From a virus (taxonomy: Duplodnaviria; Caudoviricetes): a stretch of 64,000 bases of DNA. The notes beneath the pieces are model-generated. The model saw only the letters and a list, made by a program, of their open reading frames with translations, was not told the DNA's origin and made no database searches. The translations under genes were made by a program, and so were the position numbers. Positions within the stretch are counted from its first letter, which is position 1. Each line of letters begins with the position of its first letter. Location: the IMG/VR virus record IMGVR_UViG_2541047043_000003, positions 15,427 through 79,426 of that record. The stretch is one strand, 5' to 3'. Positions 709-62,773 of this stretch are shown here, in pieces.

Positions 709-2913
709 TTGGAAGAATTAGAAAAAGAAGATATCACTTCCGAACTCGCAGAAATAATCTTAGATAAAATTCACCTGGCAATGACGAAAGAAAATCCGTC
801 TTGGCAGGAAATGGCGATGAGTGATGGGCCGGACTCACACGAAGAAGAACTAAACTCACTATTAAAAGAAGGGTTTTTAAAGGTACTAAAACATTCCTCT
901 AAAACTTTGTCGGAAGGGGCCTGTATCCAACTGTCAAAAGAATTTAAAACACTCAAAGCCTCCTATCTTTCAAACTATCTAAAAGAAAAATCAAAAGCAG
1001 TCCAAACCCCAGAACAAAAAGAAGAAATTCAAAAATCAAAGCTACTACCCGGACAAAAAAGGCAGGGCAACTACAAAAAAACGTATCTCCAAGGGATTGA
1101 AATCAGAATCGAAAATAAAAAGGGGACATATAGAGAAGGAACCGACTCCCACGGAAAAAAATGGAGAAACAAAATCCATAACGACTATGGATACATAAAA
1201 AAAACAGACGGCGACCATGTAGACGTATTTGTCGGACCCGACAAAGAATCAAGGGTCGTATTCGTAATCAATCAGAAAGACAAGGAGGGAAATTTCGACG
1301 AACACAAGGTAATGCTTGGGTTTCACGACGAAAAATCGGCCAGAAACGGATATATAAAAAACTATCCGAAAAATTGGAAGGGGTTCGGTAGTATCGTCAA
1401 ATTAACCGTAGGAGAGTTTAAGGAGTGGTTAAAAACCGAAAACACCAAAAAAGAATTAAAAAATCCTAAAATAGAATTTTTAAAATCAAAACTCTCTCAT
1501 TTAAGAAGCACACTAAAAAACATAAACACTCCACAAAACAAACTCTTTCAAAAAGAAGAGTATGGAGAAATGGAGGAAGAGTCCGTCTACAAAAGTCTTC
1601 TTTTAGAAGTAAAAAAATCCACGCATCTAATCTCAAACCTACAAAAAGCGGATGTAGGCAGGCCGCCCGATTTAATCGGAACCGAAGAAGAATGGAATGA
1701 CGGGCGGATGCATAAAAAAACGGAAAGCGGTTGGATTACACTCCCAAAAAAGAGAGAGAAAAGAACACCCGAAGAAACAAAAATTAAAAAACACCCGAAA
1801 AAGAAAATAGAAGAAAAACCAAAAAAAGGAAATACTCATCCGACAAAACTTCCCTTTTCACAAATAAGAGTCATCGAACAATATACGGCAAAAAAAGACT
1901 ACGATCGCAATCAAATCGAAACTTTAAAAATTAAAATAAAAAAAAATGGATACGATCCGAGCTTTCCTTTGTCGGTCGATTTAAAAGAAGGAAAGTGGAC
2001 CGTTGTTGCCGGTCACCACAGATACGAAGCGGTGCGTGAGCTAATCGAAGAAGGGCATTTGTCGCAAAATATCGAAATACCGGTAGTCGAAAAAAATTTC
2101 GCGTCTAAAAACGATCGGCTGGTTGCACAAATTTCAGAAAATCACAGACGAAACGTACTCGCAACCGACGAAGCCAAAGCCTACGGGGAAATGGTAAAAA
2201 ACGGATGGGACGTAAAAAAAATCTCGGAAGAACTAGGAATCAAAGTCGGGGAAGTAAATAAAAGGTTAGCACTCAATAATTTATCACCTGAGTTATTTGC
2301 ACTCGTACACAAAAAAGACAGATCTTTGCCTCTTGGAATTGCAGAGGTGATAGGGATGAACGCAAAAGATGCAAACGACAAACCCTCTCACACAATGCAA
2401 ATCAGAGCGTTTAAGTGGTACGCTGAAAATAGGTCCAAATACGGAAGTAGGGGTGCAAGCGTACTCCAAAACTATATCAAAGAATTACAAAGTGGAGAAT
2501 TAGAAAATTTTGATTTTGATTACGTAGCGACGGATATACAAAAAGAGGCACTAAAGAACGTTTCCAAAGAGAAAGCGTCCGCAAATAAAAAGATGCTTGA
2601 GGTCATGCTCGACGGATTAACCAAAAGCATACAAAGGCCGCTTGGCGACAATATCACTTCCCTAAATCCACAGGTTGTAAAGGAGCTAGCGGCCTCACTC
2701 GCACTTAGCGCGGACAAAGGCGTGGAATCGTCTTCTGTACTCGGAAGACTTGGAGTCATAATCCAGGATTTGACTTTAATAAAGAATTCGATTCAAAGTA
2801 AATTGAAAGAGATCGAAAACGAATCGAGTACACCTCTACTATTTGCAAAAGGTTTTTTACAAAAAATTAAAAAAACCCTAGAACTTTCAAAAGGAAAGAA
2901 AGTGGAAATCTAA
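709..2913 (+). CDS. Polyvalent-type protein with an inorganic pyrophosphatase-like domain and a ParB/Srx domain with HTH; probable internal head protein
   Basis: YGYIKKTDGDHVDVFVGP...FDEHKVMLGF (InPase-like motif); VVAGHHRYEA...SENHRRNV..DEAKAY..ISEELG (ParB motifs). Confidence 0.75.
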   Translation: MEELEKEDITSELAEIILDKIHLAMTKENPSWQEMAMSDGPDSHEEELNSLLKEGFLKVLKHSSKTLSEGACIQLSKEFKTLKASYLSNYLKEKSKAVQTPEQKEEIQKSKLLPGQKRQGNYKKTYLQGIEIRIENKKGTYREGTDSHGKKWRNKIHNDYGYIKKTDGDHVDVFVGPDKESRVVFVINQKDKEGNFDEHKVMLGFHDEKSARNGYIKNYPKNWKGFGSIVKLTVGEFKEWLKTENTKKELKNPKIEFLKSKLSHLRSTLKNINTPQNKLFQKEEYGEMEEESVYKSLLLEVKKSTHLISNLQKADVGRPPDLIGTEEEWNDGRMHKKTESGWITLPKKREKRTPEETKIKKHPKKKIEEKPKKGNTHPTKLPFSQIRVIEQYTAKKDYDRNQIETLKIKIKKNGYDPSFPLSVDLKEGKWTVVAGHHRYEAVRELIEEGHLSQNIEIPVVEKNFASKNDRLVAQISENHRRNVLATDEAKAYGEMVKNGWDVKKISEELGIKVGEVNKRLALNNLSPELFALVHKKDRSLPLGIAEVIGMNAKDANDKPSHTMQIRAFKWYAENRSKYGSRGASVLQNYIKELQSGELENFDFDYVATDIQKEALKNVSKEKASANKKMLEVMLDGLTKSIQRPLGDNITSLNPQVVKELAASLALSADKGVESSSVLGRLGVIIQDLTLIKNSIQSKLKEIENESSTPLLFAKGFLQKIKKTLELSKGKKVEI

Positions 2914-2963: not shown

Positions 2964-3185
2964 TTGAGTAAATCTTTCAGACATCATCCGGAAGTGCTTC
3001 GAAATAGAGCCTTACTTACGGAAGGGTTGTATTTTCAAAAACTTACACACTCCGTATTTGATGAAATATGGCAAAATATAGATAGGACGTTTGTAGACCG
3101 AGACAGGCTTTTGGAATTTGTAATCAAAGAGGATTTACTCGGGGACTATGAGAAGTTTTTACAGCAAAAAGAGAACGAAACTTAA
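2964..3185 (+). CDS. Small hypothetical protein
   Basis: 73-aa ORF, TTG start. Confidence 0.5.
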   Translation: MSKSFRHHPEVLRNRALLTEGLYFQKLTHSVFDEIWQNIDRTFVDRDRLLEFVIKEDLLGDYEKFLQQKENET

Positions 3186-4032: not shown

Positions 4033-4238
4033 TGTTTTTGTACCTCCGCAACAACTCATATACTAATCTACCACCTAAAAATCGGACAAGACTCTGATTT
4101 TAATTTTGTTTTGAGACGCACAAAACAACCACACACGCTACACTGCTCCGACAAAAACCCCTTTAAAATTAAAGGACAGGACAAACAAGTCTCCAAACGT
4201 TTTTTAGAAAAATCACTTTCCTTTTTAATCATACTTTT

Positions 4239-4691
4239 TTAACTCCAATACCTACCGTGAACGAGGTAAGTCGTGACCGGTTTCCACTGAAAAAATTCAT
4301 AACGAAAAACTCTGTAACGAGTATACCAGTCCGGAATATAACAAGAGTTGCATGTGTGAATACAACACGTAGTGGTGCAACACCAAACAAAGGTGGTGCC
4401 ACCCACCCAGCAAAGATTAATACTGACACTTCTGGAATAGCCGCCGGGACAAGGAAGACAATCAAACCAAGGCCCTTTTTGAAAACAGGAATCGCTACCA
4501 CCGCATTGATTGCAGTCCGTAACCGAATAACCGTAATCAAGATGAGCGTCCACAACGTACCAAGTGTCTCCGATAGTGTAAGAGCCTTTTGGAAAAACGT
4601 CGTAACGATTCGAACCTAAATTCCCCACCCAATGGCCGCTTGCTCCGCTTACCGGAGAAGAAGGCCCACTCGGCGGGGTTATGCGAAAGGG
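4239..4691 (-). CDS. Cys-rich (12 Cys) domain, probably translated as a -1 frameshift extension of the upstream gene
   Basis: Frame stays open from the C-CCT-TTC heptamer (4685-4691) to the stop at 4239; CxxC...CC..CC..CxxC pattern. Confidence 0.65.
   Translation of the reverse strand, partial: PFRITPPSGPSSPVSGASGHWVGNLGSNRYDVFPKGSYTIGDTWYVVDAHLDYGYSVTDCNQCGGSDSCFQKGPWFDCLPCPGGYSRSVSINLCWVGGTTFVWCCTTTCCIHTCNSCYIPDWYTRYRVFRYEFFQWKPVTTYLVHGRYWS
4623..4691 (-). promoter_or_regulatory. -1 programmed ribosomal frameshift signal (slippery heptamer, 6-nt spacer, long GC-rich hairpin)
   Basis: Minus strand reads CTC CCT TTC GCA TAA, then CCCCGCCGAGTGGGCC...CTCCG-gtaag-CGGAG...GGCCATTGGGTGGGG. Confidence 0.7.
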
Positions 4692-5455
4692 AGCCAGGTG
4701 GCTCCTTCGTTATCGCTCCAATAGGAAAAATTACCTTGAGTTCTAACCCTCCAGTTCTTGCTTGTAGAACCGGGGGAGGGGGTGGTTTTTAAAAAATCCT
4801 TTGATTCAAGGTGTTCGTAAATCCAGTTGATCGCACTGGCAAGAGACTCGTTGTCTAAAATTCCGGGGTTTAATTCCACGTCGATTCCGATCAGTTTCGG
4901 GTCATAGACGGGTAAAGTGCGAGTAACGTTTGAAATGACACCACCGACACTTGTTTTTTGAAACGATAACAAACCGATTCGGTTCGGAGAAACAGAGGGA
5001 AGATTTTGGGAATTAACGGATTGTTCGAAAACTCTGGACCTGAAAGTTTTTCTTGTGGGCCTTGTTTGAGGTTGGAATCTTTCGCTTGAATTAAAAATAG
5101 GAACCGCTTTTTCGTCGGTAAGAGAGGATTCTAGAGCAATTTCATAAATACCGACTCGCGAATTCGGATTAGGGGTTAAAGTTAAAGCGGGAACGATAAA
5201 AACGCAGTCGGTTCTTATAAAAATACCGGAACTCACTTGTATCGTATTCGGACCCGTTAAGGAAACTTCAAAACCGATTGCTGTATCCGAATCCCTGTTG
5301 ATCGTTGCAAGGATCGCAGAAAGTAAGGCCGGAACGATCGAGTTTGAACTTTCAGCCCCCGAGAGTCTGTTAAAATCTTCTGCTGTGACTTTTTGAAAAA
5401 GATTTTGATAATAGACTTTGACTTCGTTACCGGAAATTAAGATTTCAGTTTCCAT
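4679..5455 (-). CDS. Baseplate/tail-fibre-associated protein (start METEIL at 5455)
   Basis: Follows the baseplate J and I-like genes; its ATG overlaps the end of the upstream ORF. Confidence 0.6.
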   Translation of the reverse strand: METEILISGNEVKVYYQNLFQKVTAEDFNRLSGAESSNSIVPALLSAILATINRDSDTAIGFEVSLTGPNTIQVSSGIFIRTDCVFIVPALTLTPNPNSRVGIYEIALESSLTDEKAVPIFNSSERFQPQTRPTRKTFRSRVFEQSVNSQNLPSVSPNRIGLLSFQKTSVGGVISNVTRTLPVYDPKLIGIDVELNPGILDNESLASAINWIYEHLESKDFLKTTPSPGSTSKNWRVRTQGNFSYWSDNEGATWLPFA

Positions 5456-6044
5456 TTTTAGCTCCAAGAAAAACGGCGGTGCCAGCCGCAAGAATTCGAT
5501 TGAGTTGTGTGATTTGAATGTCTTTAAAAGAAGAAAGGTTTTCGGCGACAATGTAACTCACACCTCTGTCGGGTGTGACGATACTCGAAACCGAGTTCGT
5601 ATCGGGACCCGGAAGAAAAAGGCCGGTATCACTAGCCGATACGTCGGTTGCAAACCCGAGTTCGTTACATCGTAAAACCGCAAAGTCAGGCCTTTGAAAA
5701 ATCTGTCCGATTTTTGGAATCGTAGGTTCGTTAGAAAGAACGTATCCTAGGATGTAGCCTACAAACTCGGGATCATTCATATTCAAAGGTCGCTCGATTC
5801 CTAGAAGCTCTGCCCACTTTCTAAGGAAATGACCTTCCGTGTTAGACAAAACCGCGCAGTGTGTGGCAAGTTCTTGATACCTCAAATGCCACTCAACGGA
5901 ATTAAAAAGCGCGCCTACGTTTATATCATTGACGTTCGTTGTCGGAAGATACTCGGGACGGGACTTGTCGCCGAACAGTTCTTTAAACGTAGGGTCGGTT
6001 TCGTTAAACTGAGGGAGTCTTTCTAAAAGTTTATTTAAAGCCAT
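5445..6044 (-). CDS. Baseplate wedge protein (gpI/gp48-like)
   Basis: EGHFLRKWAELLGIER..M.DPEF motif; lies directly after baseplate J. Confidence 0.65.
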   Translation of the reverse strand: MALNKLLERLPQFNETDPTFKELFGDKSRPEYLPTTNVNDINVGALFNSVEWHLRYQELATHCAVLSNTEGHFLRKWAELLGIERPLNMNDPEFVGYILGYVLSNEPTIPKIGQIFQRPDFAVLRCNELGFATDVSASDTGLFLPGPDTNSVSSIVTPDRGVSYIVAENLSSFKDIQITQLNRILAAGTAVFLGAKNGN

Positions 6045-6049
6045 ATATC

Positions 6050-7252
6050 TTAAGAGGGTTCGGATTTGGAAGCGGAACCCAAAATCACGCCCAGAGACGA
6101 ACCGCCGGTTCTTGGAAGAAACGTGGGAGGAACGCTAACGTCATTTGGAATCGGCGGCGTATTTGGAACGGGGTCGGTCGCAAGTTTTCCGTAGAGTTCT
6201 AAGATCGTTACCTTGTAAAAGTCGGGATGACTTTTAAGGATAGTACCTTCCACTTGTTTGAGTAAAACGTCAAAACCAACCGGAAGGGTGTTGAGATAAG
6301 TTGTGATTGCGTTTGTTGCGACCGAGATCGCGTCATCGATTGAGACTTGAGAATTATTTAATATTTCTAAATGAAATTTAACCGAGATTCCAAGAACCGG
6401 GATTTTAAAAACACAAACCCAAGTGCCAGCGGCCGCATACCCGGGGAAATTTTCAGGGTCTTGTAAATCCCCTTCGATTGTTTTTTGAACGAAGTCAAGG
6501 AGGGATTGCGGAGGATTTGACGTGCCGTCTGAGACATACAAATTGATCCAACCGAATTCCCTTTGACCCGAAAAGGGGTTTACGTTTGTAGTAAGTTGCG
6601 CTCCGGCGATACCTGGAATAGAAATCGTAGCGGTATAGATACCGAGGGGTGTGGATCTACCCAAAGAAACGATAAAATTACGAAATCTTTTAAGACGATT
6701 TTCTTCGCTTTCTTTATTTGTACCTCCCGCAAAATCGTTCGGATTCCAAACCCGAGTATTTGCAGGAAGTTGAATATTTAAGGTACCGAGACCTTCTTCC
6801 GTATCGATCGAAAGCCTACGAATATTAAAGTCGACACCCGGCTCTTTGGCCCGAATTTCAATTTCACCAAAGGTTTGGCCCACTTCGATGGAAGTAGGTA
6901 GAACGGATTCGTACATAAGGCCGAAAAGATCGAGGGTAAAAATCGGAATTGGAACGGGAGATGTATGGCCTTGGTGTTCGATTCGAACGATACCAACCGA
7001 TCTTAAACCCGGAAGCCTTGAAAACCCGAGTGCTGTATATATTCCTTCCCGGATCGAGTAGTCAAAACCGTTGAGGGTTCTAAGATCGCCTTCGGCTAAA
7101 ACGGAGGCAATGGCCGCGATCCAAGTGGAAATCCTAGAACCCGGATTGAAGTTACAAAGTCTAGAACCCGTAGAGATTAGGAAATTTTGAATCGCTATTT
7201 TGTATTCAAGTTCGGTTTTGGGAACGTAAGCCACGTTCTTAAAACTAAACAT
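6050..7252 (-). CDS. Baseplate J/gp47 family protein (probable GTG start at 7234)
   Basis: NFNPGS, FAGGTNKESEENRLKRF and LYVSDG motifs. Confidence 0.85.
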   Translation of the reverse strand: MFSFKNVAYVPKTELEYKIAIQNFLISTGSRLCNFNPGSRISTWIAAIASVLAEGDLRTLNGFDYSIREGIYTALGFSRLPGLRSVGIVRIEHQGHTSPVPIPIFTLDLFGLMYESVLPTSIEVGQTFGEIEIRAKEPGVDFNIRRLSIDTEEGLGTLNIQLPANTRVWNPNDFAGGTNKESEENRLKRFRNFIVSLGRSTPLGIYTATISIPGIAGAQLTTNVNPFSGQREFGWINLYVSDGTSNPPQSLLDFVQKTIEGDLQDPENFPGYAAAGTWVCVFKIPVLGISVKFHLEILNNSQVSIDDAISVATNAITTYLNTLPVGFDVLLKQVEGTILKSHPDFYKVTILELYGKLATDPVPNTPPIPNDVSVPPTFLPRTGGSSLGVILGSASKSEPS

Positions 7253-7309: not shown

Positions 7310-9220
7310 GTGGGAATCATGGGTCTTGCAACATCAGGATTTAATTCGGTAACGGGAGGGGGGTTTTCAGGAAGCCTTGCACCGACGTATGAGGCTCAAA
7401 ACGTATTTTCTTTCGCCTTCTATGAAAAGGAAAAAAGCGGAAAATACTCGATTACGAAAGGGGACTCAAACGAATATTTTTTTGTAAACGGTCCGCTGTC
7501 GTATACGGAGAATTTTAAAAATAGAACCAACATAGAAAAAACATTCGGCGGAGTAGTAGTCGTAGACTTTGGACCGGACAATCACGAAATTAAACTAGAA
7601 GGCGAATTCCATATCTATCACCTAGGACTTCCCCAAAAACCTAGATCTACGATACCGGGAGAATCGGGGTCCGGATTTGTACAGTCCGCTTTTTCAGCCG
7701 GTAAAACGATATTAAAAAATAAAATCGGAAGTTACTACGACAAGTTGAGAAGCAGTTATTTAAGTCTCGGGGGAGGGGAGTTTCGTAGCGGCCTACAGGA
7801 ATTCCAGGACTTTATGTTCCTACTCCACTACTCTCGAAATTTAGAAAGAGTGGAATATACGACCAACGACCCGCAAGCGTCGAGTATCATAAAACTGTTC
7901 CTTGAAAAAAGACTTACCTGGAAAACACACGCCTTCGTATTCAGAGACTACGATAGAAATAGAACCGTAGAGGTAGTCATTCCAAGTAACGGCTTTACGA
8001 TTTCAAGATCGGTATCCGATACCAACACTTACAAATATTCCTTAAGTTTAGTGGTCGTAAAAGAACTGGAATCAAGAATTACAAGTCAGTTAGTGAGGTC
8101 GAATTTTAACGCGTTTAGAACGATTTCCGGCCTTATGAACGAAATTGAAAATTTAGTGAACCTTCCTTTAAAAATATCGGGCGCGTTACTCGGAGTTGCA
8201 AGAGGAATCCAGGTGTTTGCAAGTTCCACCAAAAGACTACTTACCTCCTGGGACAGAATGAAGGATCAGTTTGGTATAGAAGGAAAACTTGCGAGAAAAA
8301 CATTCGAAAACGCTAAATTAGAACTCTCTCTAAAAACCAAAAAAAGAGGATTACACTCGGATGAGCTTTCGGATCAAATTGATATTTCATCTAAAAAATC
8401 CCGTTCAAATGAAGCCGAATTTAGACAAAATTTAGATACGGCTACAAACGACTGCAATTCCCTAGTTACTTCAATTTCTCAAGTTTTAATCTCCGTAGAC
8501 GATTCAGGTTCGATCGAGGCAATGTCACTAAAACCGAACGCGGATTTAAGCGTTTGGATAGAAAACGACGTATACAAGTTCGTCTTAACTTCCAAAGAAA
8601 TTTTAATCGAAATAAAAGCGGCCCTAAACCTTGCATCCACTGACAACGAATTTTCAATATACCACGTTAGCCCTGGAGATACCTGGGAAAGTATCGCCGA
8701 AAAAAAGTTAAAAGACTTAAAACTCGGACTTTCCCTTGCCAAATATAATAACGCACAAGACACGACAAGTTTAACCAAAAGGGCGATTAAAATCCCGTAT
8801 GGAACAAACACTAACGTATTCACAACCCTTCCGGACAATCCAAGTCCAAAGGATTTAGAAATCGCACTCATCGGATGTGATATACGACTAAATCCGAATC
8901 GAGGGATTGAAATCTCTCCCACGGGTGATTTAAGTCTCCTCGAGGGGGATGAGACGTTAATCAATGAAAAGTTGGATTTAATCGATATCGTACAAGGTTC
9001 ATTGATCGGTGCGTCCGAATTTGGAAACCCGATCCTACCGGGAGAAAACCCGGATGAGATTTTTAAAAAAGGGAGTATTACAAATCTTTTAAATCAATTT
9101 CGGTCCGATCCGAGAATTAAAAGCGCAAAATTTTTAGGGGCCGTAGGGGAGGGGGATGTTTTCTATTTTAATTTCCAATTGGAGTCGATATCCGGAGGGA
9201 GTGTTATTCTTTCCGTATGA
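7310..9220 (+). CDS. Baseplate/tube-initiator protein with LysM and a C-terminal gp25-like wedge domain
   Basis: YHVSPGDTWESIAEK (LysM); GDLSLLEG...FG...DPRIKS (gp25/W-like). Confidence 0.65.
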   Translation: MGIMGLATSGFNSVTGGGFSGSLAPTYEAQNVFSFAFYEKEKSGKYSITKGDSNEYFFVNGPLSYTENFKNRTNIEKTFGGVVVVDFGPDNHEIKLEGEFHIYHLGLPQKPRSTIPGESGSGFVQSAFSAGKTILKNKIGSYYDKLRSSYLSLGGGEFRSGLQEFQDFMFLLHYSRNLERVEYTTNDPQASSIIKLFLEKRLTWKTHAFVFRDYDRNRTVEVVIPSNGFTISRSVSDTNTYKYSLSLVVVKELESRITSQLVRSNFNAFRTISGLMNEIENLVNLPLKISGALLGVARGIQVFASSTKRLLTSWDRMKDQFGIEGKLARKTFENAKLELSLKTKKRGLHSDELSDQIDISSKKSRSNEAEFRQNLDTATNDCNSLVTSISQVLISVDDSGSIEAMSLKPNADLSVWIENDVYKFVLTSKEILIEIKAALNLASTDNEFSIYHVSPGDTWESIAEKKLKDLKLGLSLAKYNNAQDTTSLTKRAIKIPYGTNTNVFTTLPDNPSPKDLEIALIGCDIRLNPNRGIEISPTGDLSLLEGDETLINEKLDLIDIVQGSLIGASEFGNPILPGENPDEIFKKGSITNLLNQFRSDPRIKSAKFLGAVGEGDVFYFNFQLESISGGSVILSV

Positions 9221-9900
9221 GTGGGAGCTTTACAAACGATTCTTTTGACTGGCAAGAAAAAATAAAGTCTTTGGATTCTCGTTTTGCGCCTCCCGTATTT
9301 GCAACCGTAACGGAAGTTTTTCCCAGATTTAGAGCGAACGTCCTGACAACTTTCGGTGAACAATTTTTAAAAGTCAGGTATTTCGGACCCGCATTGTTTT
9401 CAAACGGGAAGGCGCACGGACGGGCCTTCTCATTAAAAAAAGATCAATTAGTACTTCTAGAATTCATCGGCGGGTCATTTAGAAGTCCCGTGATAACGAA
9501 AACGTTTCCGTTTGCGACAAAAGACAGCGAGTTTGATTCTTTAAGTATGTTTTGGAAGAAATTTTCCTTTTTAGATCCGAATACGGATATCATCGACTTT
9601 CACGAATCCGGTTATTGTGTCAGGCAAACAACGAATAAAATAGAAGTGTATGACTCGGATTTAAGTATCGTTTTGGAATTTGATTTTTTAGAAAAGAAAG
9701 GAAAATTAAATTTTACTGATTTAGAAATAACGGCCAAAACCAAAATCACCGGGGACTTGGAGGTCAAAGGAAAAATCAAAGCAAGCGGGGAAATAGAATC
9801 GGAAAAAGACCTAATCTCTTCTAAAAAGTCCTTTAACAATCACGGCCACACGTATAACCCGGGGCCTTTAGCACCTACAAAAACAAGTCCTCCGATTTAA
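9217..9900 (+). CDS. Baseplate spike (gpV-like)
   Basis: OB-fold-like N-terminus; ITGDLEVKG beta-strand repeats; HxH tip motif (NNHGHTY). Confidence 0.8.
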   Translation: MSGSFTNDSFDWQEKIKSLDSRFAPPVFATVTEVFPRFRANVLTTFGEQFLKVRYFGPALFSNGKAHGRAFSLKKDQLVLLEFIGGSFRSPVITKTFPFATKDSEFDSLSMFWKKFSFLDPNTDIIDFHESGYCVRQTTNKIEVYDSDLSIVLEFDFLEKKGKLNFTDLEITAKTKITGDLEVKGKIKASGEIESEKDLISSKKSFNNHGHTYNPGPLAPTKTSPPI

Positions 9901-9923
9901 AAAATAAAGGTTTCTTTTTTTGT

Positions 9924-11486
9924 ATGTTAGAGGATGAAAAAATCTCGATTGCGTCTCGTAGTGACATATCGATCCCACCGAAATCGTTTGCACTCGAAAT
10001 CCATCTTCCCGGTTCTTCTAAAAATATCTTTTTTCCGATTGAGTATGTCACTCAAATCAAATCACACAGGTCTTTAAGTGCCGGTCGAGGAGGGATTTCA
10101 CTTTCGATTCCCTTGCAAGAAGAATACGTAATTCAATACGGAGAAACAAAACCGCTTCCGCTTTCTCAAATTGAAAACCCGGAAAGTTTAAAATTCAAGG
10201 ATATATTTCGGGTAAGAAGTCTTGTGTTTTTGTACTACGATAATTCTTCTCCAAGCACGAAAACGATCGGATTTAAAAAACTAAACGCAGGGAAGATAAA
10301 AAGTAGGGCTCTTGAGTATTCACCCGACGGTAAAAGTTTTGTAAGCGTACAAATAACTCCGATGGAGACTTTACTTACGGACACAGACTTTTTTATCGAC
10401 TACCAAAGAGAGGAAGGCGCACCCCAAACAAGAACCGGCGAATCGTATGCGGGCGTGATTACAAGTGCAGCTAAGGTTTTTTTACAAGGACAACTAAAAG
10501 ACCTTCTAAAGAACTTTTGGGACGAGTTTTTTTGTAAGCTTATGAACGTTACAAGATTCGCGGATCATCCAGTATTACGTCCGACCACTTCCCAAGATCC
10601 GAATGCGGCCTTGTCGATACTCTTACCTAAAAAAGCATACACGGAGTTTTTCGTATACGAATCCCAAGTAATTAGCTCTTTTACGATCGGACAGTACGTG
10701 AATTTTTGGGAGATTCTACGTTCCTATTTGTGCGAACCGCTCTATGAACTTTTTGTAGATCCGTTGGAAACTTTTGAGATAGAGGGAATTTTTGGAAAAG
10801 GGATTTCGTTTGGAGAAATCGGATCTCCTCACTTAGAAGAATACGAAGTCGGTAGTAAAGAATCAAAAGTAGTTTTTCGCCCGACTCCCTTTTATATGTT
10901 TTCAGAGGACGGTAAATACAGGGATTTAAAAAACTTCGGAATCGATGCGGTATATACGTTTTTACTAGAGGATTTAAAAAACTTTAGAATCGAAGAAAAC
11001 GAGGAAAACGTGGTATCAGGGGTTCACGTAATTCAAAATACATTCCAGCAATTCGGTACCGTGTTATCAGAACCAAAATACGCGGATAAAATCAGATCCA
11101 TATTTGGACCGAGACTTTTACACGTAAAAATTCCGGGACTCATTTTTAAGGAAGAAAACTTAAAAACTAAAAACAAAGAAAACTACAAGAAAGAACTTTC
11201 CGGGATTCGGGATATGTTATTTCGAATTTTTTGCGATTTGGAAGAATTAAAAATAACGAACGGATCTTTTGATCTTCCCTTTATTCCTCTAAGACCCGGA
11301 ATGCCCTTTCAAATCCTTTTTAATCCTTCCAAAAAGTACCCTATATCCGAAGAAGAAATTTGCAAATTCGGATATATCACGGACGTAGTGGACGAATTTT
11401 CACCCGGTAGCGCAAAGGCAAATACGAACGTTTCGTTTAAATGGGGGCCTTCTTCTTCAAACTACGAAAGTAATTTTAGAAGTTAA
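9924..11486 (+). CDS. Baseplate hub protein (putative)
   Basis: Position next to the spike gene; PLYELFVD, FRPTPF, LRPGMP and YITDV motifs. Confidence 0.55.
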   Translation: MLEDEKISIASRSDISIPPKSFALEIHLPGSSKNIFFPIEYVTQIKSHRSLSAGRGGISLSIPLQEEYVIQYGETKPLPLSQIENPESLKFKDIFRVRSLVFLYYDNSSPSTKTIGFKKLNAGKIKSRALEYSPDGKSFVSVQITPMETLLTDTDFFIDYQREEGAPQTRTGESYAGVITSAAKVFLQGQLKDLLKNFWDEFFCKLMNVTRFADHPVLRPTTSQDPNAALSILLPKKAYTEFFVYESQVISSFTIGQYVNFWEILRSYLCEPLYELFVDPLETFEIEGIFGKGISFGEIGSPHLEEYEVGSKESKVVFRPTPFYMFSEDGKYRDLKNFGIDAVYTFLLEDLKNFRIEENEENVVSGVHVIQNTFQQFGTVLSEPKYADKIRSIFGPRLLHVKIPGLIFKEENLKTKNKENYKKELSGIRDMLFRIFCDLEELKITNGSFDLPFIPLRPGMPFQILFNPSKKYPISEEEICKFGYITDVVDEFSPGSAKANTNVSFKWGPSSSNYESNFRS

Positions 11487-11536
11487 AAAAAATTAAAAAC
11501 CCGATTCTATTAAAAAACGAATAAAATATTAGTTGA

Positions 11537-11926
11537 ATGTCTTCTTTTCTTGGACCCTTTGCGAGCGACGATACGCTTTCCGATTCTAGAAAAAAAGTTT
11601 TAAACGTATCCCAAGTGGAAATCGATTTTTCAAGTCCGCTCGGAACCTACAATTTAGGGGAAAATTTACAGGTCAATTCTACAGTTCTCCAAATACTCGT
11701 AAAAGTCGAGACGGCTTTTGACGATTTTCCGATTCTTACCGTCGGAAGTACTACGTCTCCCGATCTTTGGATGGACGGTTTTAACGTAGATTTGTCGGTT
11801 GCAGGGATCTACGTGGGATTTGGATTTGATTTAATCAAAACGACAACTCAGTGCAGGGTGTATTGGAATCCGAACGGAAGTAGCAAAGGAAGACTGAATG
11901 TTTTTCTAATATTTTCGGATAACTAA
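11537..11926 (+). CDS. Beta-rich virion protein (decoration/fibre-associated)
   Basis: VKVETAFD..LTVG motif; beta-sandwich-like composition. Confidence 0.5.
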   Translation: MSSFLGPFASDDTLSDSRKKVLNVSQVEIDFSSPLGTYNLGENLQVNSTVLQILVKVETAFDDFPILTVGSTTSPDLWMDGFNVDLSVAGIYVGFGFDLIKTTTQCRVYWNPNGSSKGRLNVFLIFSDN

Positions 11927-11948
11927 AAACTAAAAACGTTCCAATTGG

Positions 11949-11985
11949 AAAAAAATCGGTATTCGGACTTACATTCCGAATACCG
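11949..11985 (-). terminator. 11-bp hairpin with U-tract on the minus strand
   Basis: cggtattcgga-cttacat-tccgaataccg preceded by A7 on the plus strand. Confidence 0.5.
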
Positions 11986-12102
11986 GTATAGCTAGTGTTG
12001 GATATTTCTTTAAAAAAAACTTCGCTTGAAATTTAAAAGAAAAAATTATCCCTTTTTTTAAAAGAAAAAGCAGTCATAACGTCTAATTTAACAATATAGA
12101 AT

Positions 12103-12333
12103 ATGGTTCGCAAATTTGAAATCGAGGAGGGTGTGATTTATAACCTTTTTTATATGGGTCTTTCCGTACAGGGTTATTATTTCAGAGGCAACTGGATCTT
12201 ATTCGGATTGTTTGCGGTTTTAATTAAAAAACTTAAAATTCATCCAGACGGTTACTTTTTAATCGCCTACAACTGTAATTATTTCAAAGTCCTTTATCTT
12301 TTTTTAAAAGGGGAATTTATTTCCAAAGAATAA
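12103..12333 (+). CDS. Small hydrophobic hypothetical protein
   Basis: 76-aa ORF with a hydrophobic segment. Confidence 0.4.
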   Translation: MVRKFEIEEGVIYNLFYMGLSVQGYYFRGNWILFGLFAVLIKKLKIHPDGYFLIAYNCNYFKVLYLFLKGEFISKE

Positions 12334-12377
12334 AAAATCCCACCGTCCGATAACTAAGTTTTCTTGATAACAAGGTC

Positions 12378-13292
12378 TTGATGCTTGAGACCGCGTTTTT
12401 ACATCCGTTCCAAATCCTAAAGGCTAGCCCCGAAGAACGAACCGGCGCGATCAAAATACTGGTTAGGGCTTCTTCCGAAAAAGAAGACCTCCAGGGCGAA
12501 GTAATCCTAAAGTCCGCGTACGCAGACCTCGACATGAGAAGTGAATTTCTCACACAAGGATACTTTGATTACAATCATCTAACCGACTTAATCGACAAAG
12601 AAATTCAGGATTTAAGAAGCAAAGGGAAACTTTCCGGGACAGAACTTGTAAATTTACAAAAAGCTAAAGTTGAATCAATCATCGGAGGGGTAGAACGGAT
12701 CGGATTCAAAGACGATTTTCCACAAAATTTAGGAATTAAAAACGACGGATTGTATATCCAAGGACGCCTATTCCCGGAAAACAAATTTGCGGAAGAAATA
12801 AGTAAAGGGCTCCAAGCCGGTTTTATGGGATGGGGTGCGTCCGTTTCGGGATACGCAAGGCCCCAAGACTACCAAGGAAAAACGATTCGAAAAATACAAC
12901 TTCGTAAATGCGCCATAGCTCCCCTTCAAGAAGTCTACAACCCCGACACTGCCGTACAATTAATTAAGGGTGCAGTTCTACTTCGCGATATTGAAAAAAG
13001 TTCGTTACCCGTTCCGAGTGAGGACTTACAAAACCCGGAAAGTTTAGACCGACTGTTTCGAATCGAAAGAAAACTCGATTTTTTATCGAAACTTTTTTTA
13101 TCAGATCCGAACACACAAGACAAGTTTTTAGACTTAATCTTTTCCGATATTGCAAACCGGACTAAAACTCAAGAATTAAAACTCGGGTCTTCTTGGATTC
13201 GTTCCGTTCTTTCGGACGAATTCTATCTAGAAGGGGAAGACTTAGAGAATTTTACCGATCTTTTATTTTTAAAACTAAACGGAGAATCGTAA
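12378..13292 (+). CDS. Prohead protease
   Basis: ASSEKEDLQGE, GYFDYNH, GLYIQGRL, GASVSG and CAIAP..YNPDT motifs; upstream of scaffold and capsid genes. Confidence 0.8.
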   Translation: MMLETAFLHPFQILKASPEERTGAIKILVRASSEKEDLQGEVILKSAYADLDMRSEFLTQGYFDYNHLTDLIDKEIQDLRSKGKLSGTELVNLQKAKVESIIGGVERIGFKDDFPQNLGIKNDGLYIQGRLFPENKFAEEISKGLQAGFMGWGASVSGYARPQDYQGKTIRKIQLRKCAIAPLQEVYNPDTAVQLIKGAVLLRDIEKSSLPVPSEDLQNPESLDRLFRIERKLDFLSKLFLSDPNTQDKFLDLIFSDIANRTKTQELKLGSSWIRSVLSDEFYLEGEDLENFTDLLFLKLNGES

Positions 13293-14053
13293 TGTTAAAA
13301 GACGCGATTTCGCGATTAAAAGAAAGACTAACGACTAACGTAACAAAATCCTCGATCAATGAATCGGATTTACAGACGTTAGCCTCGACTGTGACGACCC
13401 TACTCGATTCTGGAAAAGTGGAACCCAAAACTGATAAAATAAAAGAGTGGGCCGTTTCGAAAGGCTTGGAAGAAGCCGAAGCCATTTCTTTTGCAGAGGA
13501 GGTAATTGATGCGTATTTTGACGATACGACTGATGAAACCGTTTCTAAATCGGAACTGGGGGATTCTTTAAATGGCGAAGAGGAAGAAGAATCTGAGGAA
13601 AAAAAGAAAAAGGAAGAAAAAGACAAAAAAAAGAAAAAAGAGGAAGAGGAGAAAAAAGAAATCGAAAAATCAAAATTTATTTCAGAGATTCAAAATACAT
13701 TAGAAATACTTAAATCAGGACAGGAAACACTGGCCGCTGCAATCGAACATCTGCTTGATAACGCACGAGATAACCAGAAACTAAAGTCGGAACTTCTAAC
13801 CTTAAAATCAGAAATCGGAAGTGTGTCTTGTCGACCCGCAAATACAAAAACACCCGTAACCACTCAAATACAAAAATCAAATCTAAACGGTCAGGTGGAC
13901 GCTCGCGAAAGGGACAATGTAGCGAATAAAATCATTAAAGGAATCGAACTCGGTAAGTGTCAGTTAGAGGACGTTTCCTATTTTCAATCCACTTGGAAGC
14001 TTTCCGAGAGAGCCCAAAAATTCTTTAACGAATATAAGGAGGTTTTAAAATGA
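13292..14053 (+). CDS. Capsid scaffolding protein
   Basis: E/K-rich coiled coil between protease and capsid genes; TAATG coupling at 13290-13294. Confidence 0.7.
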   Translation: MLKDAISRLKERLTTNVTKSSINESDLQTLASTVTTLLDSGKVEPKTDKIKEWAVSKGLEEAEAISFAEEVIDAYFDDTTDETVSKSELGDSLNGEEEEESEEKKKKEEKDKKKKKEEEEKKEIEKSKFISEIQNTLEILKSGQETLAAAIEHLLDNARDNQKLKSELLTLKSEIGSVSCRPANTKTPVTTQIQKSNLNGQVDARERDNVANKIIKGIELGKCQLEDVSYFQSTWKLSERAQKFFNEYKEVLK

Positions 14054-15501
14054 TCGGTCCTTATTCCCTAGACCAATTAATCGAAATTAAAAAAGGGTTC
14101 GAAGCAAACACGGCTCAAAACGGCGCGGCTCCGTTTGTGGATTTTAATTCTTCGGGTGCAACGCTTTCCATGCAACTACTTGACAAAGTGGAAGTCGCTT
14201 TGGTGTCCACGGACAAGGACTTTAAGTTTTTAAAAGAAGTACCGAGAAGAGCCATCACTCAGACGCTTGCAGAATACAACCGCTACAAATCACACGGTGG
14301 CGGGTGGTACCATACGTCCAATATTGGACAATCCGAAGAGCCTAGTTTTCGAGACGCACAACTAGAACGTCTGTATAACGAAGTCAATTACAGCGCGGAA
14401 GGATTCTCTTTTAATAAAGTAGTCGATACGGTAACAAATGCCCAGGACCCGGAACTGATTCAATCCAACGCCGCACTCAGGCGCGCAATGGAGAATCAGA
14501 TGAGACGTATTTGGTTTGGAAATAAAAAACACAACCGAAACGAACAGGACGGTTTTGAAACGGTCGCCAAAAAACTAGGAAAAGAATTTTTTACGGATTG
14601 TAGGGGTGCGTTACCCGCAATCGATCAAATGAAATATGTGACTTCCAAAGTCAGGACCAAATATTTCGGTCTCGTAAACTACGTAAAAATGCACCCGTCC
14701 ACAAAAGCACTCTACGACCAAAATTTTGATCGTAACGGTTCCGGGATGGTCTTGCAAAATAACAGTTATTCTCCTTCAAACACTTCTCTTTCCAATATCG
14801 TCTATGGCGTTGCGGACTCGAACGCTAAAGACAATATGATTATTTTTGACGACGATATCTGGCTCGACCGTCATAGTTGGGGAGTACCTCAAAGGCTCGA
14901 TCACAACGGAAATATGGTCGAAGGCGCGACAAGCGACAAGGAATCTCCTTCTACACCAAGCCTTTCAGTATCCGTAATTCCTTCCGTTCCGAATTCGTTA
15001 TTTACGGGTTCGTATGTCGGAGACTACAACTACAGAGTTTGCGCGGGGACTCTAAGACACTTTTCGGCCGCTTGTCCGGAGGTAAACGTTTCGATTCCGA
15101 ATGGAGGTGCCTCGGAACTTACGATTACACCGGGAGTCGGTGGAATACCGGAAACAAGATACGTGATACTTCGGGATACGACCCCGGATTCAAATCTACT
15201 TCTGTATATGCGGACAGTTGAAAGAAACTTAGTCGGTGCTACGACGATTATTCAGGATCTTAACGAGGATTTACCCGGTACTACAATTATGGTTCAGGGA
15301 GATTTTAACTCAAAGTCGTCAAGCGACGAAACAAGAACTTTGGTGTTGTCCGAGCTTCTTCCGTATACCAAAACCTTATTTCCCTACGGTGCGGGAGGTG
15401 TATTAAGGACGCGAGTCGGAATCGTCGAAAACTACAGCGCACTTCAAGAGTTAGCACCCGAGAAGTTCCACGTATTCACGAACGTTCCCGTAAGACTTTA
15501 G
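14050..15501 (+). CDS. Major capsid protein, SPO1/Twort (Herelleviridae)-like
   Basis: GATLSMQLLD..VALV..DFKFLKEVPRR..QTLAEYNRY.SHG resembles the N-terminus of that capsid family; WFGN..EQDG motif. Confidence 0.8.
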   Translation: MIGPYSLDQLIEIKKGFEANTAQNGAAPFVDFNSSGATLSMQLLDKVEVALVSTDKDFKFLKEVPRRAITQTLAEYNRYKSHGGGWYHTSNIGQSEEPSFRDAQLERLYNEVNYSAEGFSFNKVVDTVTNAQDPELIQSNAALRRAMENQMRRIWFGNKKHNRNEQDGFETVAKKLGKEFFTDCRGALPAIDQMKYVTSKVRTKYFGLVNYVKMHPSTKALYDQNFDRNGSGMVLQNNSYSPSNTSLSNIVYGVADSNAKDNMIIFDDDIWLDRHSWGVPQRLDHNGNMVEGATSDKESPSTPSLSVSVIPSVPNSLFTGSYVGDYNYRVCAGTLRHFSAACPEVNVSIPNGGASELTITPGVGGIPETRYVILRDTTPDSNLLLYMRTVERNLVGATTIIQDLNEDLPGTTIMVQGDFNSKSSSDETRTLVLSELLPYTKTLFPYGAGGVLRTRVGIVENYSALQELAPEKFHVFTNVPVRL

Positions 15502-15534
15502 AATTATCTAATACGTTTATTCTCCTTACTTTAG

Positions 15535-15558
15535 AGGGTGAGTAATCACCCTTTTTTT
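15535..15558 (+). terminator. Intrinsic terminator after the capsid gene
   Basis: agggtga-gtaa-tcaccct followed by a T-tract. Confidence 0.75.
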
Positions 15559-15560
15559 AA

Positions 15561-16304
15561 ATGGCAAATTTCGAATCGTTATACGCAAAAGGAAAGTTTC
15601 CAAGAACAAGATTTCTTTTGGAAAAAATCGCGGTTTCTGCAAAAGACTCCTGGACTCACAACACACTGAGTGCAAAACCCGCTTGGTGGGGAAAAATGGC
15701 GATGTCCAACCGTACAGGCGGGGGAGGTGGGATTTTAATTAAAAAAATTCCGGGAGGATATCAAGTCTTTCATCCGAATAAGGGAAAATACAATTATATG
15801 GCGGTGATTGAAAGGGGTAGAAGACGTTACGATATGCGTCCGGCTTTACTCGGAGGAAGTCGCGCACGTATGGGTGAAAACGGTCCTTATGTAATCGTCC
15901 CGGTCACTAAAAACGAAAATAAAACTCCCGTTTCTCCAAAAAACAATTCGATCAATTCCGTTATTATAAAGACCGGTTCTTTTAAGGAAGAAAACGCGCA
16001 CGGTAAACTTGTAACCAGGAATAGATACAAATACAGACAAGACCCCGGAATGACCGGTCGCGGAAACGTATTTGCAAGCGAACAGGTTTACAAAAACGGG
16101 CATGTGCAGAGATCTTTTGTAAAATTTGTGGTAGTAACCGAAAGAAGTACGGATTTTTTTCAATCCGTGATACCGGCGCAAAGGGTTTTAGGTCGAGTAA
16201 AAGAAGACGTTAATCGCGCTCTAAAATCAAAACAATTAAAATCGGCCGTAGCCTTGGATACGAAGGATTTAATAAGTGAGCTATTAAGTAAGAAAAGAAA
16301 ATGA
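15561..16304 (+). CDS. Phage neck/tail completion protein (putative)
   Basis: IERG...YDMRPALL...GPYVIVP motif; position after the capsid gene. Confidence 0.55.
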   Translation: MANFESLYAKGKFPRTRFLLEKIAVSAKDSWTHNTLSAKPAWWGKMAMSNRTGGGGGILIKKIPGGYQVFHPNKGKYNYMAVIERGRRRYDMRPALLGGSRARMGENGPYVIVPVTKNENKTPVSPKNNSINSVIIKTGSFKEENAHGKLVTRNRYKYRQDPGMTGRGNVFASEQVYKNGHVQRSFVKFVVVTERSTDFFQSVIPAQRVLGRVKEDVNRALKSKQLKSAVALDTKDLISELLSKKRK

Positions 16305-16376
16305 AATTTTACTTTCGAAAACGATTTGAAATATTGATATACAAAAAAATAAGACTTTCCTTAATCTAAACGGTAA

Positions 16377-17327
<951 letters not shown>

Positions 17328-17336
17328 GGGAACTTT

Positions 17337-17513
17337 ATGACTACCGCAGAGAGACTGAGAGAAGAAGGCAAGATTGAGGGAGAACTCAAAGGTAAAATCG
17401 AAGGCAAAATCGAAGACGCTCGCAATATGCTTTCGGAGAGAATCGACCTAAACGTCGTTCTTCGAGTCACGGGCCTTACTGAAAAAGAACTTAAAGATCA
17501 CGGAGTCATTTAG
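17337..17513 (+). CDS. Stand-alone RpnS-like mini-ORF (58 aa)
   Basis: [30 protein letters not shown]...KELKDHGVI; AAGGGA SD upstream. Confidence 0.7.
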
Positions 17514-17602
17514 GGAACGATCGGCCCTAAATAAAATCCTTCCTATCCCGCAAAAAATAACACCCTTTCCGATTCTTTTTTTTCCTTATTCTTTTCTCTT
17601 AA

Positions 17603-18400
17603 ATGGACGCAAATTTAAGAGAAGATGACATTCGCAAACAAGACGGACGGGACAAAGGTCTTGTATTAATCACGTATCCCGCTCCACCCGAAGACGTGGT
17701 AGTCGATTATTTTAGAATCAACATTCCCCTGACAGGACTTGAATACAGAAATATAAACGTACCGATAGAGCACGGACACCCTTTGTATCAAGAAGGAATA
17801 TCCACAAAAGGTCCGAATACTAAATTTCCGAAAATCGGAATCGAATGCGCGACTGAAAAACACACTCAGTTTTTAGGATTAAACGAATTACATTTTGAAA
17901 ATTCAGAAAAGTTTTTGGAGTATTTAAAAAAAATCTCAGAACTCCCCGAAAGCAGACGAATCGCTTCCAAATCTTTTTTAGACGAGTTTTCTAACAAAAA
18001 ATACTTCCAACAGTTTCAATTCACTTGCGAGTCGGACGTAATTATCACCGGGTTTGTAACCGGTGCAGCCGGAAGAAACACAAACAAGTTTCTCTATGAC
18101 TCCGCACTCGCTACAACTCTCCTACTCGCAAACGATTTACCCGTAATGTATCCGGGACTGACCGTATTTCTACCCGAAGACACGGAACCAAATCTAACAA
18201 CGACCGATTTTTCAGAACCGTTCTGGGGATTTGAAATAAAATTAAAAATCGTACAAACAAAATCGATTTTTAGAACCAAACCCGCATTTCTTTTTCCCGA
18301 TATTAAAACCTTTGACGTATCTTTAACGCGAAGCCGCACCCGATTCGAAGGTCGATTCGCTTTAAAGGACAAACAAGGTGGAACCGGAATTAAATCTTAA
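17603..18400 (+). CDS. Tail terminator/completion protein (putative)
   Basis: FPKIGI motif; position before the sheath gene. Confidence 0.5.
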   Translation: MDANLREDDIRKQDGRDKGLVLITYPAPPEDVVVDYFRINIPLTGLEYRNINVPIEHGHPLYQEGISTKGPNTKFPKIGIECATEKHTQFLGLNELHFENSEKFLEYLKKISELPESRRIASKSFLDEFSNKKYFQQFQFTCESDVIITGFVTGAAGRNTNKFLYDSALATTLLLANDLPVMYPGLTVFLPEDTEPNLTTTDFSEPFWGFEIKLKIVQTKSIFRTKPAFLFPDIKTFDVSLTRSRTRFEGRFALKDKQGGTGIKS

Positions 18401-18590
18401 AGGAAAAGAAAAAAATTCATCTTCAAACAAGAACCAGACTCCCGAAGAGTTTCTACTAAAAAAAGAAACTCAACTAGGTAAAACGATAACCCCGCGCTTT
18501 CGGGAATATTTTTACCGGGAACTAAAAAGAGTCTCAAACCGAACTTTCGAAGACGTTTGGGAGGCCGTAAATGGGAACACGCGAGCCTGA
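18378..18590 (+). CDS. Small phage protein preceding the sheath gene
   Basis: 70 aa; overlaps both neighbouring genes. Confidence 0.6.
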   Translation: MEPELNLKGKEKNSSSNKNQTPEEFLLKKETQLGKTITPRFREYFYRELKRVSNRTFEDVWEAVNGNTRA

Positions 18591-20382: not shown

Positions 20383-20384
20383 AC

Positions 20385-20816
20385 ATGGCAAAAAGTTCAA
20401 AACCGAATCCAAGAGTACTCACCGGAAACGACGCAATCGTTAAAATCAACGGACAATCCGTCGGGTTTATGAAATCTTTGCGAGTAAATATAAACAACAA
20501 TCAAGGAAGAATTCAAGCGATCGGAAAAAGAAAACCGAAAGGACTTAAATCCCTCGACTGGCAAGGAACGGCGTCGGGAGAGTTCCATATATTGACAGTA
20601 CCAACCGATGGGGTCGTAGTAATCGATACGTATGACGATGACAACGCGGACGACTTGTACGATATTTTAGTTTTAGACAAAAAAAGCGGGAAACGAGTGG
20701 GACTCTTAACGGGGGGAGTGAACACAGAAGGGTTTAGTATTCAAAATAACGAAATGAGTGGAAGGGAAATTGAATTCGAACTCGTGGATTGGGAACCGAT
20801 GGAGGCATTTAACTAA
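20385..20816 (+). CDS. Tail tube protein
   Basis: 143 aa directly after the sheath gene; LTGNDAIVKING..VG motif. Confidence 0.85.
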   Translation: MAKSSKPNPRVLTGNDAIVKINGQSVGFMKSLRVNINNNQGRIQAIGKRKPKGLKSLDWQGTASGEFHILTVPTDGVVVIDTYDDDNADDLYDILVLDKKSGKRVGLLTGGVNTEGFSIQNNEMSGREIEFELVDWEPMEAFN

Positions 20817-21097
20817 AACGTAATACGTCTATTTTTTTAATGAATTTTATCGATATATATTTGGCTGTTATATAAAGCAAGGGCTACCCCTTTCGAAGTA
20901 GCCCCGCACCCTACACGTTACCATAGGGGGATATACTTTAAAAGCGTCGTCGTAGAAAGGAAATTTGTAAAGTAAAAATTGTATCGATACAATCATGCTA
21001 AAAAAATGAAACGGTTCGGCCCCAAATATAGAATAACGACCCTAACTATATACACTTCACATTCTCCGATAACAACATTTCAATTAAAATCTCGAAT

Positions 21098-21751: not shown

Positions 21752-21812
21752 ACAAAAAAGGGAAGAGATTTTGAAACGAATCGATGACGAATTAAAAATA
21801 CATGGCCTCTGA
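21435..21812 (+). CDS. Tail chaperone GT extension in the +1 frame
   Basis: Frame opens within the A9 run (21433-21441); LDLFLMKEFQILP motif; overlaps the tape-measure start. Confidence 0.65.
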   Translation, partial: KKIGTLDALSNEKNLLDLFLMKEFQILPKGVRHLGNLFLEQKRFLLEATSRVDLTSLKTKTRLLSEKKQVERMKSEEFLTNISPTLIRILEEEAGFSQEQIHAQGEQKREEILKRIDDELKIHGL

Positions 21813-23484: not shown

Positions 23485-23521
23485 AAACTTCCGATTTTTA
23501 ATTTCGTTTTAATCTTTCGAA

Positions 23522-55846: not shown

Positions 55847-62773
<6,927 letters not shown>

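Follow-up and report, generated by a model that had tools for sequence, protein, structure and literature searches.

Does the gene that follows the baseplate genes on the minus strand of this tailed-phage DNA end at its stop codon, or is it continued by a share of the ribosomes into a second, overlapping frame? The window, that is, the whole 64,000-nucleotide stretch that was analysed (positions 15,427 to 79,426 of the IMG/VR record IMGVR_UViG_2541047043_000003), carries at 5455 to 4239 an open reading frame (ORF), ORF1, which ends in a slippery heptamer and is followed in the -1 register by a cysteine-rich frame. Programmed frameshifts in tailed phages are textbook matter for the tail chaperones. 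For the present locus, the original prediction, made from the letters of the window, had proposed that a -1 shift at C CCU UUC, stimulated by a hairpin, fuses the cysteine-rich domain to ORF1. Comparison of related loci supports this claim, and we put the probability of a programmed -1 ribosomal frameshift at the end of this gene, which resembles genes for receptor-binding proteins (RBPs) and tail fibres, in LE1-like Leptospira myovirus prophages at about 0.88. The features concerned are as follows (aa, amino acids; nt, nucleotides).

4679..5455, minus strand: ORF1, 0-frame product of 258 aa with a TAA stop, a putative RBP/tail-fibre-like baseplate protein (phrog_4351)
4685..4691, minus strand: slippery heptamer C CCU UUC (X XXY YYZ), in phase (CTC CCT TTC), invariant in 59/59 related loci
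4679..4684, minus strand: spacer GCAUAA of 6 nt, which holds the 0-frame stop (4681..4679)
4623..4678, minus strand: predicted stimulatory hairpin of 56 nt, basal stem CCCCGCC/GGGUGGGG, from folding and homologues
4239..4685, minus strand: -1-frame extension of 148 codons with a TAA stop, a Pro/Ser/Gly linker (about 17 aa) and then a domain modelled as all beta with 12 cysteines
4626..4628, minus strand: GTG, start of a stand-alone 129-aa ORF in the source annotation and thus a rival start, inside the 3' arm of the hairpin

Translation places the ATG of ORF1 at 5455 and its coding part at 5455..4682, and its 3' end reads TGG CTC CCT TTC GCA TAA, so the heptamer is in phase. This heptamer, the 6-nt spacer and the GC-rich hairpin of about 56 nt were all found where the original prediction had placed them. 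The -1 frame opens only 8 codons ahead of the junction and then runs for 148 codons to a TAA at 4241..4239, with 12 cysteines, as anticipated, at extension residues 58, 61, 67, 76, 79, 92, 102, 103, 107, 108, 112 and 115; the product sizes of 258 and about 405 aa given beforehand are arithmetically correct (257 + 148 = 405). Folding of the hairpin, which had been proposed as a check, gave -35.9 kcal/mol for 4678..4623, compared with -22.4 +/- 3.1 kcal/mol in 200 dinucleotide shuffles (z -4.38; 0/200 as good), and the GC fraction peaks there at 0.58, with flanks of about 0.3-0.45. Passages of Sharma et al. (PMC4066793) describe 'high level frameshifting' in E. coli for C_CC.U_UU.C, count H_HH.U_UU.Y among the most efficient motifs and state that stimulatory structures usually begin 5-8 nt downstream. 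The window has the former heptamer in phase and a stable RNA structure after 6 nt.

These elements and their conservation are directly seen in the sequences, whereas the occurrence of a shift, the ratio of the two products and the role of the extension are inferred. Most ribosomes would read CCU-UUC-GCA-stop and release the 258-aa protein. When CCU is in the P site and UUC in the A site, the hairpin 6 nt downstream would stall the ribosome, and both tRNAs could slip one base back and re-pair on CCC and UUU. The -1 frame would then be read for 148 codons, giving a 405-aa isoform. The short form would carry an N-terminal 'shoulder' domain such as anchors RBPs to baseplates, as fold matches suggest, and in the long form a new domain, all beta, would follow behind a flexible Pro/Ser/Gly linker. 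The proposed mechanism is that of a canonical bacterial -1 frameshift; the gene context is new.

The extension was found by search in 9 of the 22 genomes of the genus and in 15 of the 114 of the family (4 of 14 genera), and further in 27 IMG/VR contigs, 7 GTDB-species contigs titled Leptospira or Leptospiraceae and 7 metagenome contigs. There is much redundancy among the 59 loci, through close kinship or because one contig was reached by two routes, and the number of distinct cassettes is 35. The heptamer CCCTTTC keeps its phase in each of the 59 loci, which come from isolates, metagenome-assembled genomes (MAGs), viral contigs and metagenomes and whose extensions are 36-100% identical; 57 of them were located by a protein motif, and the remaining two (L002 and L003) were shown separately to have the heptamer. 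Among the distinct cassettes, 33 have the spacer GCATAA, one has GGGTAA and one GCGTGA. All 35 place the 0-frame stop precisely one codon past the heptamer and have a -1 frame that stays open as far as the conserved domain, having opened merely 4-39 codons before the junction. The codon that supplies the first C of the heptamer is CTC in 15, CGC in 7, TTC in 6, CAC in 3, TAC in 2 and ATC in 2 of these cassettes, that is, six amino acids with the wobble base always C. Protein similarity of the extension begins at the first -1-frame residue in all homologues, and the more distant database proteins P0004, P0005 and P0021 keep the junction peptide. Conservation at every related locus that was inspected means that the arrangement is no coincidence. 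Another database relative, P0003 (106 aa), is 72% identical over about 81 residues and continues with unrelated sequence, which suggests that its cysteine-rich part is broken or was misassembled.

Synonymous sites are most conserved at the cassette. When pairs of sequences share a residue, the fraction of identical codons is 0.467 overall in both frames. The highest values among all 406 positions, 0.91-0.96, belong to the 7-codon windows that have ORF1 codons 254-258 and extension codon 1 at their centres, and there is another, lower increase, to about 0.65, at the 3' arm of the stem. Between the stem arms, the codons of the invariant residues G7, P8 and G17 differ freely in their third bases, as would be expected if the linker is translated in the -1 frame.

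The predicted hairpin starts directly after the spacer in 35/35 distinct cassettes, with energies of -17.6 to -45.7 kcal/mol. Seventeen distinct homologous hairpins each form one long stem-loop (-29.3 to -45.7 kcal/mol; z -2.75 to -6.99). RNAalifold recovered three helices from 25 ungapped distinct sequences, and the basal stem alone from a first MAFFT alignment that included distant, indel-bearing sequences. In the 25 ungapped sequences, 90.5% of the cells of the 19-pair structure can pair, versus 37-54% with slid partners, and two pairs are fully compensated (AU 18, GC 5 and GU 2 in one; UA 12 and AU 8, with 5 unpaired, in the other). The observed covariation score was reached by 0/500 shuffles, which ignore the kinship of these related sequences. 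Moreover, different stems occur at the same place. An uncultured Leptospiraceae MAG (L052) keeps heptamer and spacer with a perfect 10-bp stem, CUCCGCCUGC/GCAGGCGGAG, at 2995-3040, and its 3' arm lies clear of the His-Trp-Val-Gly codons; maintenance of the structure thus does not depend on that peptide. Similarly, three AT-rich metagenomic phage contigs (L057-L059) keep heptamer and spacer with the stem CGCCGUCAGG/CCUGACGGCG. Conservation of the heptamer in homologues and stem covariation had been named as checks on the prediction, and both came out in its favour. Homologues without heptamer and hairpin but with their own start codon, which had been named as grounds to reject it, did not emerge: all 59 loci have the heptamer, and the candidate start is lost in some of the cassettes, as described below.

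Some observations speak against a frameshift. Of 31 distinct cassettes, 25, that of the window among them, have GTG as codon 20 of the extension, and a GGAG-like stretch lies upstream of it in some of these. A natural in-frame fusion was not found: a word-index search gave 0 matches among proteins of 260-2000 aa, and phmmer against 1.84 billion representatives gave 11 matches, of which 9 are stand-alone proteins of 106-164 aa (two long repeat proteins of 754 and 714 aa, which match in 11-13 short stretches, were judged to be spurious). The hairpin of the window in a 101-nt context has a z of only -1.64, with 16/200 shuffles folding as well, and that of L052 in a longer context has a z of -1.19. 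Fully compensatory change affects only two base pairs within the main group of related sequences. Furthermore, the Pro and Gly codons of the linker themselves yield complementary GC-rich arms, their first two bases pairing in the stem; RNA and protein constraints are therefore entangled and not fully separable.

The GTG is central to a reading in which the cysteine-rich ORF is a separate gene, started at GTG 4628 or by termination-reinitiation, with a hairpin that occludes the start and couples it to ORF1 and without any trans-frame protein. Its frequency among the cassettes, a GGGAGG stretch 7 nt upstream of it in the locus L001 and the stand-alone proteins of 121-164 aa in public annotation would fit with this, but we consider a separate gene quite improbable. 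The GTG is part of the stem and changes together with the bases that it pairs with (CCCCACC/GGGUGGGG versus CCCCGCC/GGGCGGGG), and 6 of the 31 cassettes have lost it, codon 20 being GCG in 5 and TGG in 1. Three loci (L019, L020 and L021) have no ATG, GTG or TTG before the invariant RYDVFP at residues 27-32. In the metagenomic contig L058, the open frame of 201 codons begins 4 codons before the junction and has its first such codon only at position 173 of the 197 in the extension, thus none for 172 extension codons, and the ORF listing called no ORF in this frame. The residues R1, T3, P4, G7, P8, G17, H18 and W19, which precede the GTG, are invariant in 15 sequences while their third codon positions vary, and a separate gene leaves the invariant heptamer and the wobble C in six codons unexplained. 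The long -1 ORF is thus conserved without a conserved start of its own, though most loci keep the codon-20 GTG, and on these comparisons independent initiation cannot be the general route to the extension domain. Internal initiation may additionally occur in the loci that keep the GTG, where the frameshift would give the 405-aa fusion and the GTG a free 129-aa domain; a ribosome that melts the hairpin during termination on ORF1 would expose the GTG, and Shine-Dalgarno-like purine runs lie near. We regard operation of both routes as unlikely, though less so than a separate gene, in view of the fact that stem pairing alone explains the GTG and that several lineages dispense with it.

That one conserved protein needs two frames, and that P0003 is garbled past about residue 81, might also be read as decay, i.e., an originally single tail-fibre gene that has suffered a fixed frameshift mutation or was misassembled, and whose downstream frame is not expressed. 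This is effectively refuted because the frame break is conserved: it is the same in 59/59 loci from isolates, MAGs, viral contigs and metagenomes, both frames are intact and conserved as protein down to 36% identity, and synonymous sites are most conserved exactly at the junction. Hardly more credible is a hairpin that serves as transcription terminator, attenuator or RNA-stability element between two genes without recoding. Such a role would suit a strong GC-rich stem directly after a stop codon, but the hairpin lacks a downstream U-run, forms part of a conserved open frame and starts 6 nt past a slippery heptamer in 35/35 cassettes, and no Rfam family was found for 4400-4900 at E<=1. Transcriptional slippage was ruled out by the lack of a long homopolymer run, and stop-codon read-through by another stop that the 0 frame meets 9 codons on, the conserved protein being in the -1 frame.

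The cassette predicted to cause the frameshift is also present behind a very different gene. In L057-L059, the upstream frame has only about 50-57 codons and is preceded by a terminator-like hairpin. This mini-ORF ends in the same arrangement of heptamer, GCATAA and hairpin, followed by a 197-codon extension (L057 2293-2662; L058 233-993), and hhalign pairs the 29 C-terminal residues of its product with the C-terminal 27 of ORF1 (probability 74%, E 2.7e-5). The conserved unit therefore comprises a terminal beta-hairpin, the slip site, the linker and the domain. Persistence of two frames in such different settings suggests that both products, or their ratio, matter. A tentative proposal, to which we give well under even odds, is that the frameshift is a device for stoichiometry or symmetry breaking, by which a conserved, portable module would allow a fibre made up of several short chains to bear monomeric host-recognition heads in sub-stoichiometric number (e.g., one). 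The module would consist of the C-terminal beta-hairpin (RTQGN.AYW...W.PFA), the slip site with its hairpin, the linker and the hypervariable cysteine-rich domain, and would be old enough to occur with both the 258-aa shoulder-domain protein and a 57-aa mini-ORF in unrelated AT-rich phages. If the heads are needed in sub-stoichiometric number, this would be why selection never fused the frames. If true, this would be the first recoding-controlled RBP, with a new fold.

What kind of protein would be extended? The AlphaFold model of ORF1 has a mean predicted local distance difference test score (pLDDT) of 70.1. By VIA-align, its residues of about 3-190 match the tail fibre of cyanophage A-1(L) (8kec_A; Z 8.7, 95 aligned residues), and further SPP1 gp22 (2xc8_A; Z 8.4, 104 residues), the tail fibre of Haloferax tailed virus 1 (HFTV1; 9h5b; Z 7.2, 127 residues), the RBPs of the lactococcal phages 1358 and p2 (4l92 and 2wzp; Z 6.0 and 5.9), TssK (6n38; Z 5.7) and Mtd of a Bordetella phage (Z 5.7), compared with Z <=3.5 for unrelated chains. 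Foldseek ranks the same set, with best E values of 2e-3 to 1e-2, and finds 34 viral matches at E<=1e-3 in BFVD, some of them named receptor-binding, tail-fibre or baseplate protein. By sequence, ORF1 belongs to PHROG 4351 (E 7e-134, 446 bits), a family whose function is unknown. An N-terminal shoulder-domain fold is thus indicated by a model with a pLDDT of just 70 and moderate Z values, and because of the latter the assignment is probable, not certain: ORF1 is most likely a baseplate-anchored receptor-binding or fibre protein. The RBPs of p2 and 1358, SPP1 gp22, the A-1(L) and HFTV1 fibres and TssK are alike in this baseplate-anchoring fold (Z 5.7-8.7), while their sequence identity with ORF1 is merely 7-16%. 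Their distal head domains are encoded in frame, whereas in the ORF1 system a distal domain would be reached only by the frameshift.

The extension itself is modelled as all beta with a pLDDT of 80.6. No Pfam family (E<=0.01) and no PHROG family were found for it, Foldseek gave no match at E<=1e-3 in PDB, the ESM Atlas gave no usable match, and the best wide Z of VIA-align was 4.6; these are also the results that bear on an Ig-like identity (Big_2, I-set or FN3) of the domain. The best Foldseek match, to flavivirus E proteins (E 2.7e-2, TM 0.25), was taken as meaningless. In alignments, two conserved frameworks, GHW.GN..RYDVFP.GSY..GD.W on the N-terminal side and NTC..P.W.T.Y..YKYEF.QW on the C-terminal side, enclose a middle part that varies in length, sequence and number of cysteines. 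The predicted 12-cysteine domain holds for the window, but not across homologues: 12 cysteines are present in 11 of 15 sequences, 10 in 3 and only 4 in L018, and the extensions of the P0021 lineage and of L052, as read from their sequences, have few. The scarcity in L018 and the P0021 lineage means that the cysteine-rich part is a variable insert in a conserved beta framework. Its CxxC...CxxC spacing suggests metal binding. Because this cysteine-rich middle is hypervariable, we read the extension as a host-contacting or metal-stabilised tip; that it is a distal, variable, possibly metal-stabilised host-recognition domain seems to us a little less than an even bet.

The genes around ORF1 are in line with a baseplate function. 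The neighbours needed here are these.

6050..7252, minus strand: Baseplate J-like wedge protein, first gene of the operon (Pfam PF04865, E 2.9e-9; phrog_6 baseplate wedge, E 2.7e-33)
5445..6044, minus strand: 199-aa protein of phrog_4015 (function unknown), between Baseplate_J and ORF1
4068..4232, minus strand: 54-aa DUF6171 protein with CxxC (Pfam PF19668, E 3.9e-8), directly downstream of the extension

The operon runs in the order Baseplate_J, phrog_4015, ORF1, -1 ORF, DUF6171 and a 111-aa phrog_4073 protein. ORF1 thus adjoins baseplate wedge genes, two genes downstream of Baseplate_J, a setting expected of an RBP or TssK-type protein, and its suspected place in a baseplate operon, outside the tail-chaperone context, is borne out by this position and the RBP-like fold. 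The order Baseplate_J, phrog_4015, ORF1 is kept in KF114877, KF114879, KF114880 and L052. The region is 69% identical in DNA to that of Leptospira phage vB_LnoZ_CZ214-LE1, and tblastn with the -1 ORF hit 4 of 50,697 phage records, all of them Leptospira LE1-like. In KF114877, KF114879 and KF114880, ORF1 is annotated and the -1 ORF region is wholly or largely without annotation; the window's own genome annotation has a stand-alone 129-aa protein from GTG 4628.

Some further observations were made in the window. The DUF6171 protein (4068-4232, minus strand) begins 6 nt past the extension stop and has CxxC motifs, and it is conserved in the phage relatives, where small ORFs are annotated for it; a role together with the cysteine-rich domain is possible. 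At 7310-9220 on the plus strand, a divergent gene encodes a 636-aa protein with matches to the tail-tube initiator (PF23980) and to a baseplate family (phrog_975), so that the genes of the baseplate module belong to two divergent operons. A 2308-aa ORF at a great distance from the baseplate operon (55847-62773, minus strand) encodes a Tc/RHS-type toxin-like protein, in which Pfam recognises SpvB, FG-GAP and RHS-repeat domains (E 1e-33 to 2e-7). A 734-aa protein (709-2913, plus strand) combines an InPase domain (inorganic pyrophosphatase-like, PF18823, E 7.5e-49) with ParB-like regions (PHROG), and its homologue in KF114877 is annotated as ParB-like protein. Nine large ORFs (129-603 aa) of the presumed phage region at 9217-26774 on the plus strand have no Pfam family at E<=1e-3, and the element is very poorly covered by curated families.

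How does this putative frameshift compare with known ones? One parallel is gene 10A/10B of T7 and T3, in which, according to parts of the 2016 recoding review (PMC5009743), a U-rich heptamer (G_GU.U_UU.C in T7) that precedes the 0-frame stop by a few codons allows a -1 shift and hence a minor, C-terminally extended structural protein of the virion, like the product predicted here, and in which T7 uses a distant 3' element, whereas an adjacent hairpin is present here. Gene 10 encodes a capsid protein, whereas ORF1 is baseplate/RBP-like, and unlike in T7 and T3 the extension is a cysteine-rich domain of 148 aa and unknown fold. Extensions of capsid and major tail proteins form a class to which the frameshift-derived SPP1 gp17.1* belongs. 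In the same class, as sections of that review (PMC5009743) describe for Lactobacillus phage A2 and for Listeria phages A118, A500 and PSA, recoding adds a domain to a fraction of the protein copies, as is proposed here. Those capsid and tail-tube extensions are mostly Ig-like and several arise by +1 shifts; in contrast, the present case involves an RBP-like gene, a proposed -1 shift and an extension in which no Ig-like family or fold was detected. The tail-chaperone genes G/GT of lambda and most long-tailed phages share with what is proposed here a conserved -1 shift near the 3' end of a gene for tail morphogenesis and, as excerpts of two papers (PMC5009743; PMC12846349) have it, short and long forms at a set ratio. 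Unlike G/GT, ORF1 follows Baseplate_J and has an RBP shoulder-like fold; its neighbours are Baseplate_J and phrog_4015, and no TAC family match was found. We found no report in the open-access literature of recoding in a baseplate or receptor-binding protein, or in Leptospira phages: in the accessible part of the 2016 review (PMC5009743) the terms tail fibre, baseplate and receptor binding are absent, and in that of the LE3/LE4 phage paper 'frameshift' has 0 occurrences.

Finally, the signal is invariant across at least four genera of Leptospiraceae and in metagenomic phages, yet the extension is left without annotation in the three phage records inspected and, elsewhere, is called a separate hypothetical protein. 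The heptamer, the 6-nt spacer and a simple hairpin with three alternative stems should be a clean natural system for studies of frameshifting in spirochaetes. Correct annotation would add a 405-aa virion protein to the LE1-like Leptospira prophages, in a genus whose characterised phages are very few, and would flag the hypervariable domain as a candidate determinant of host range.

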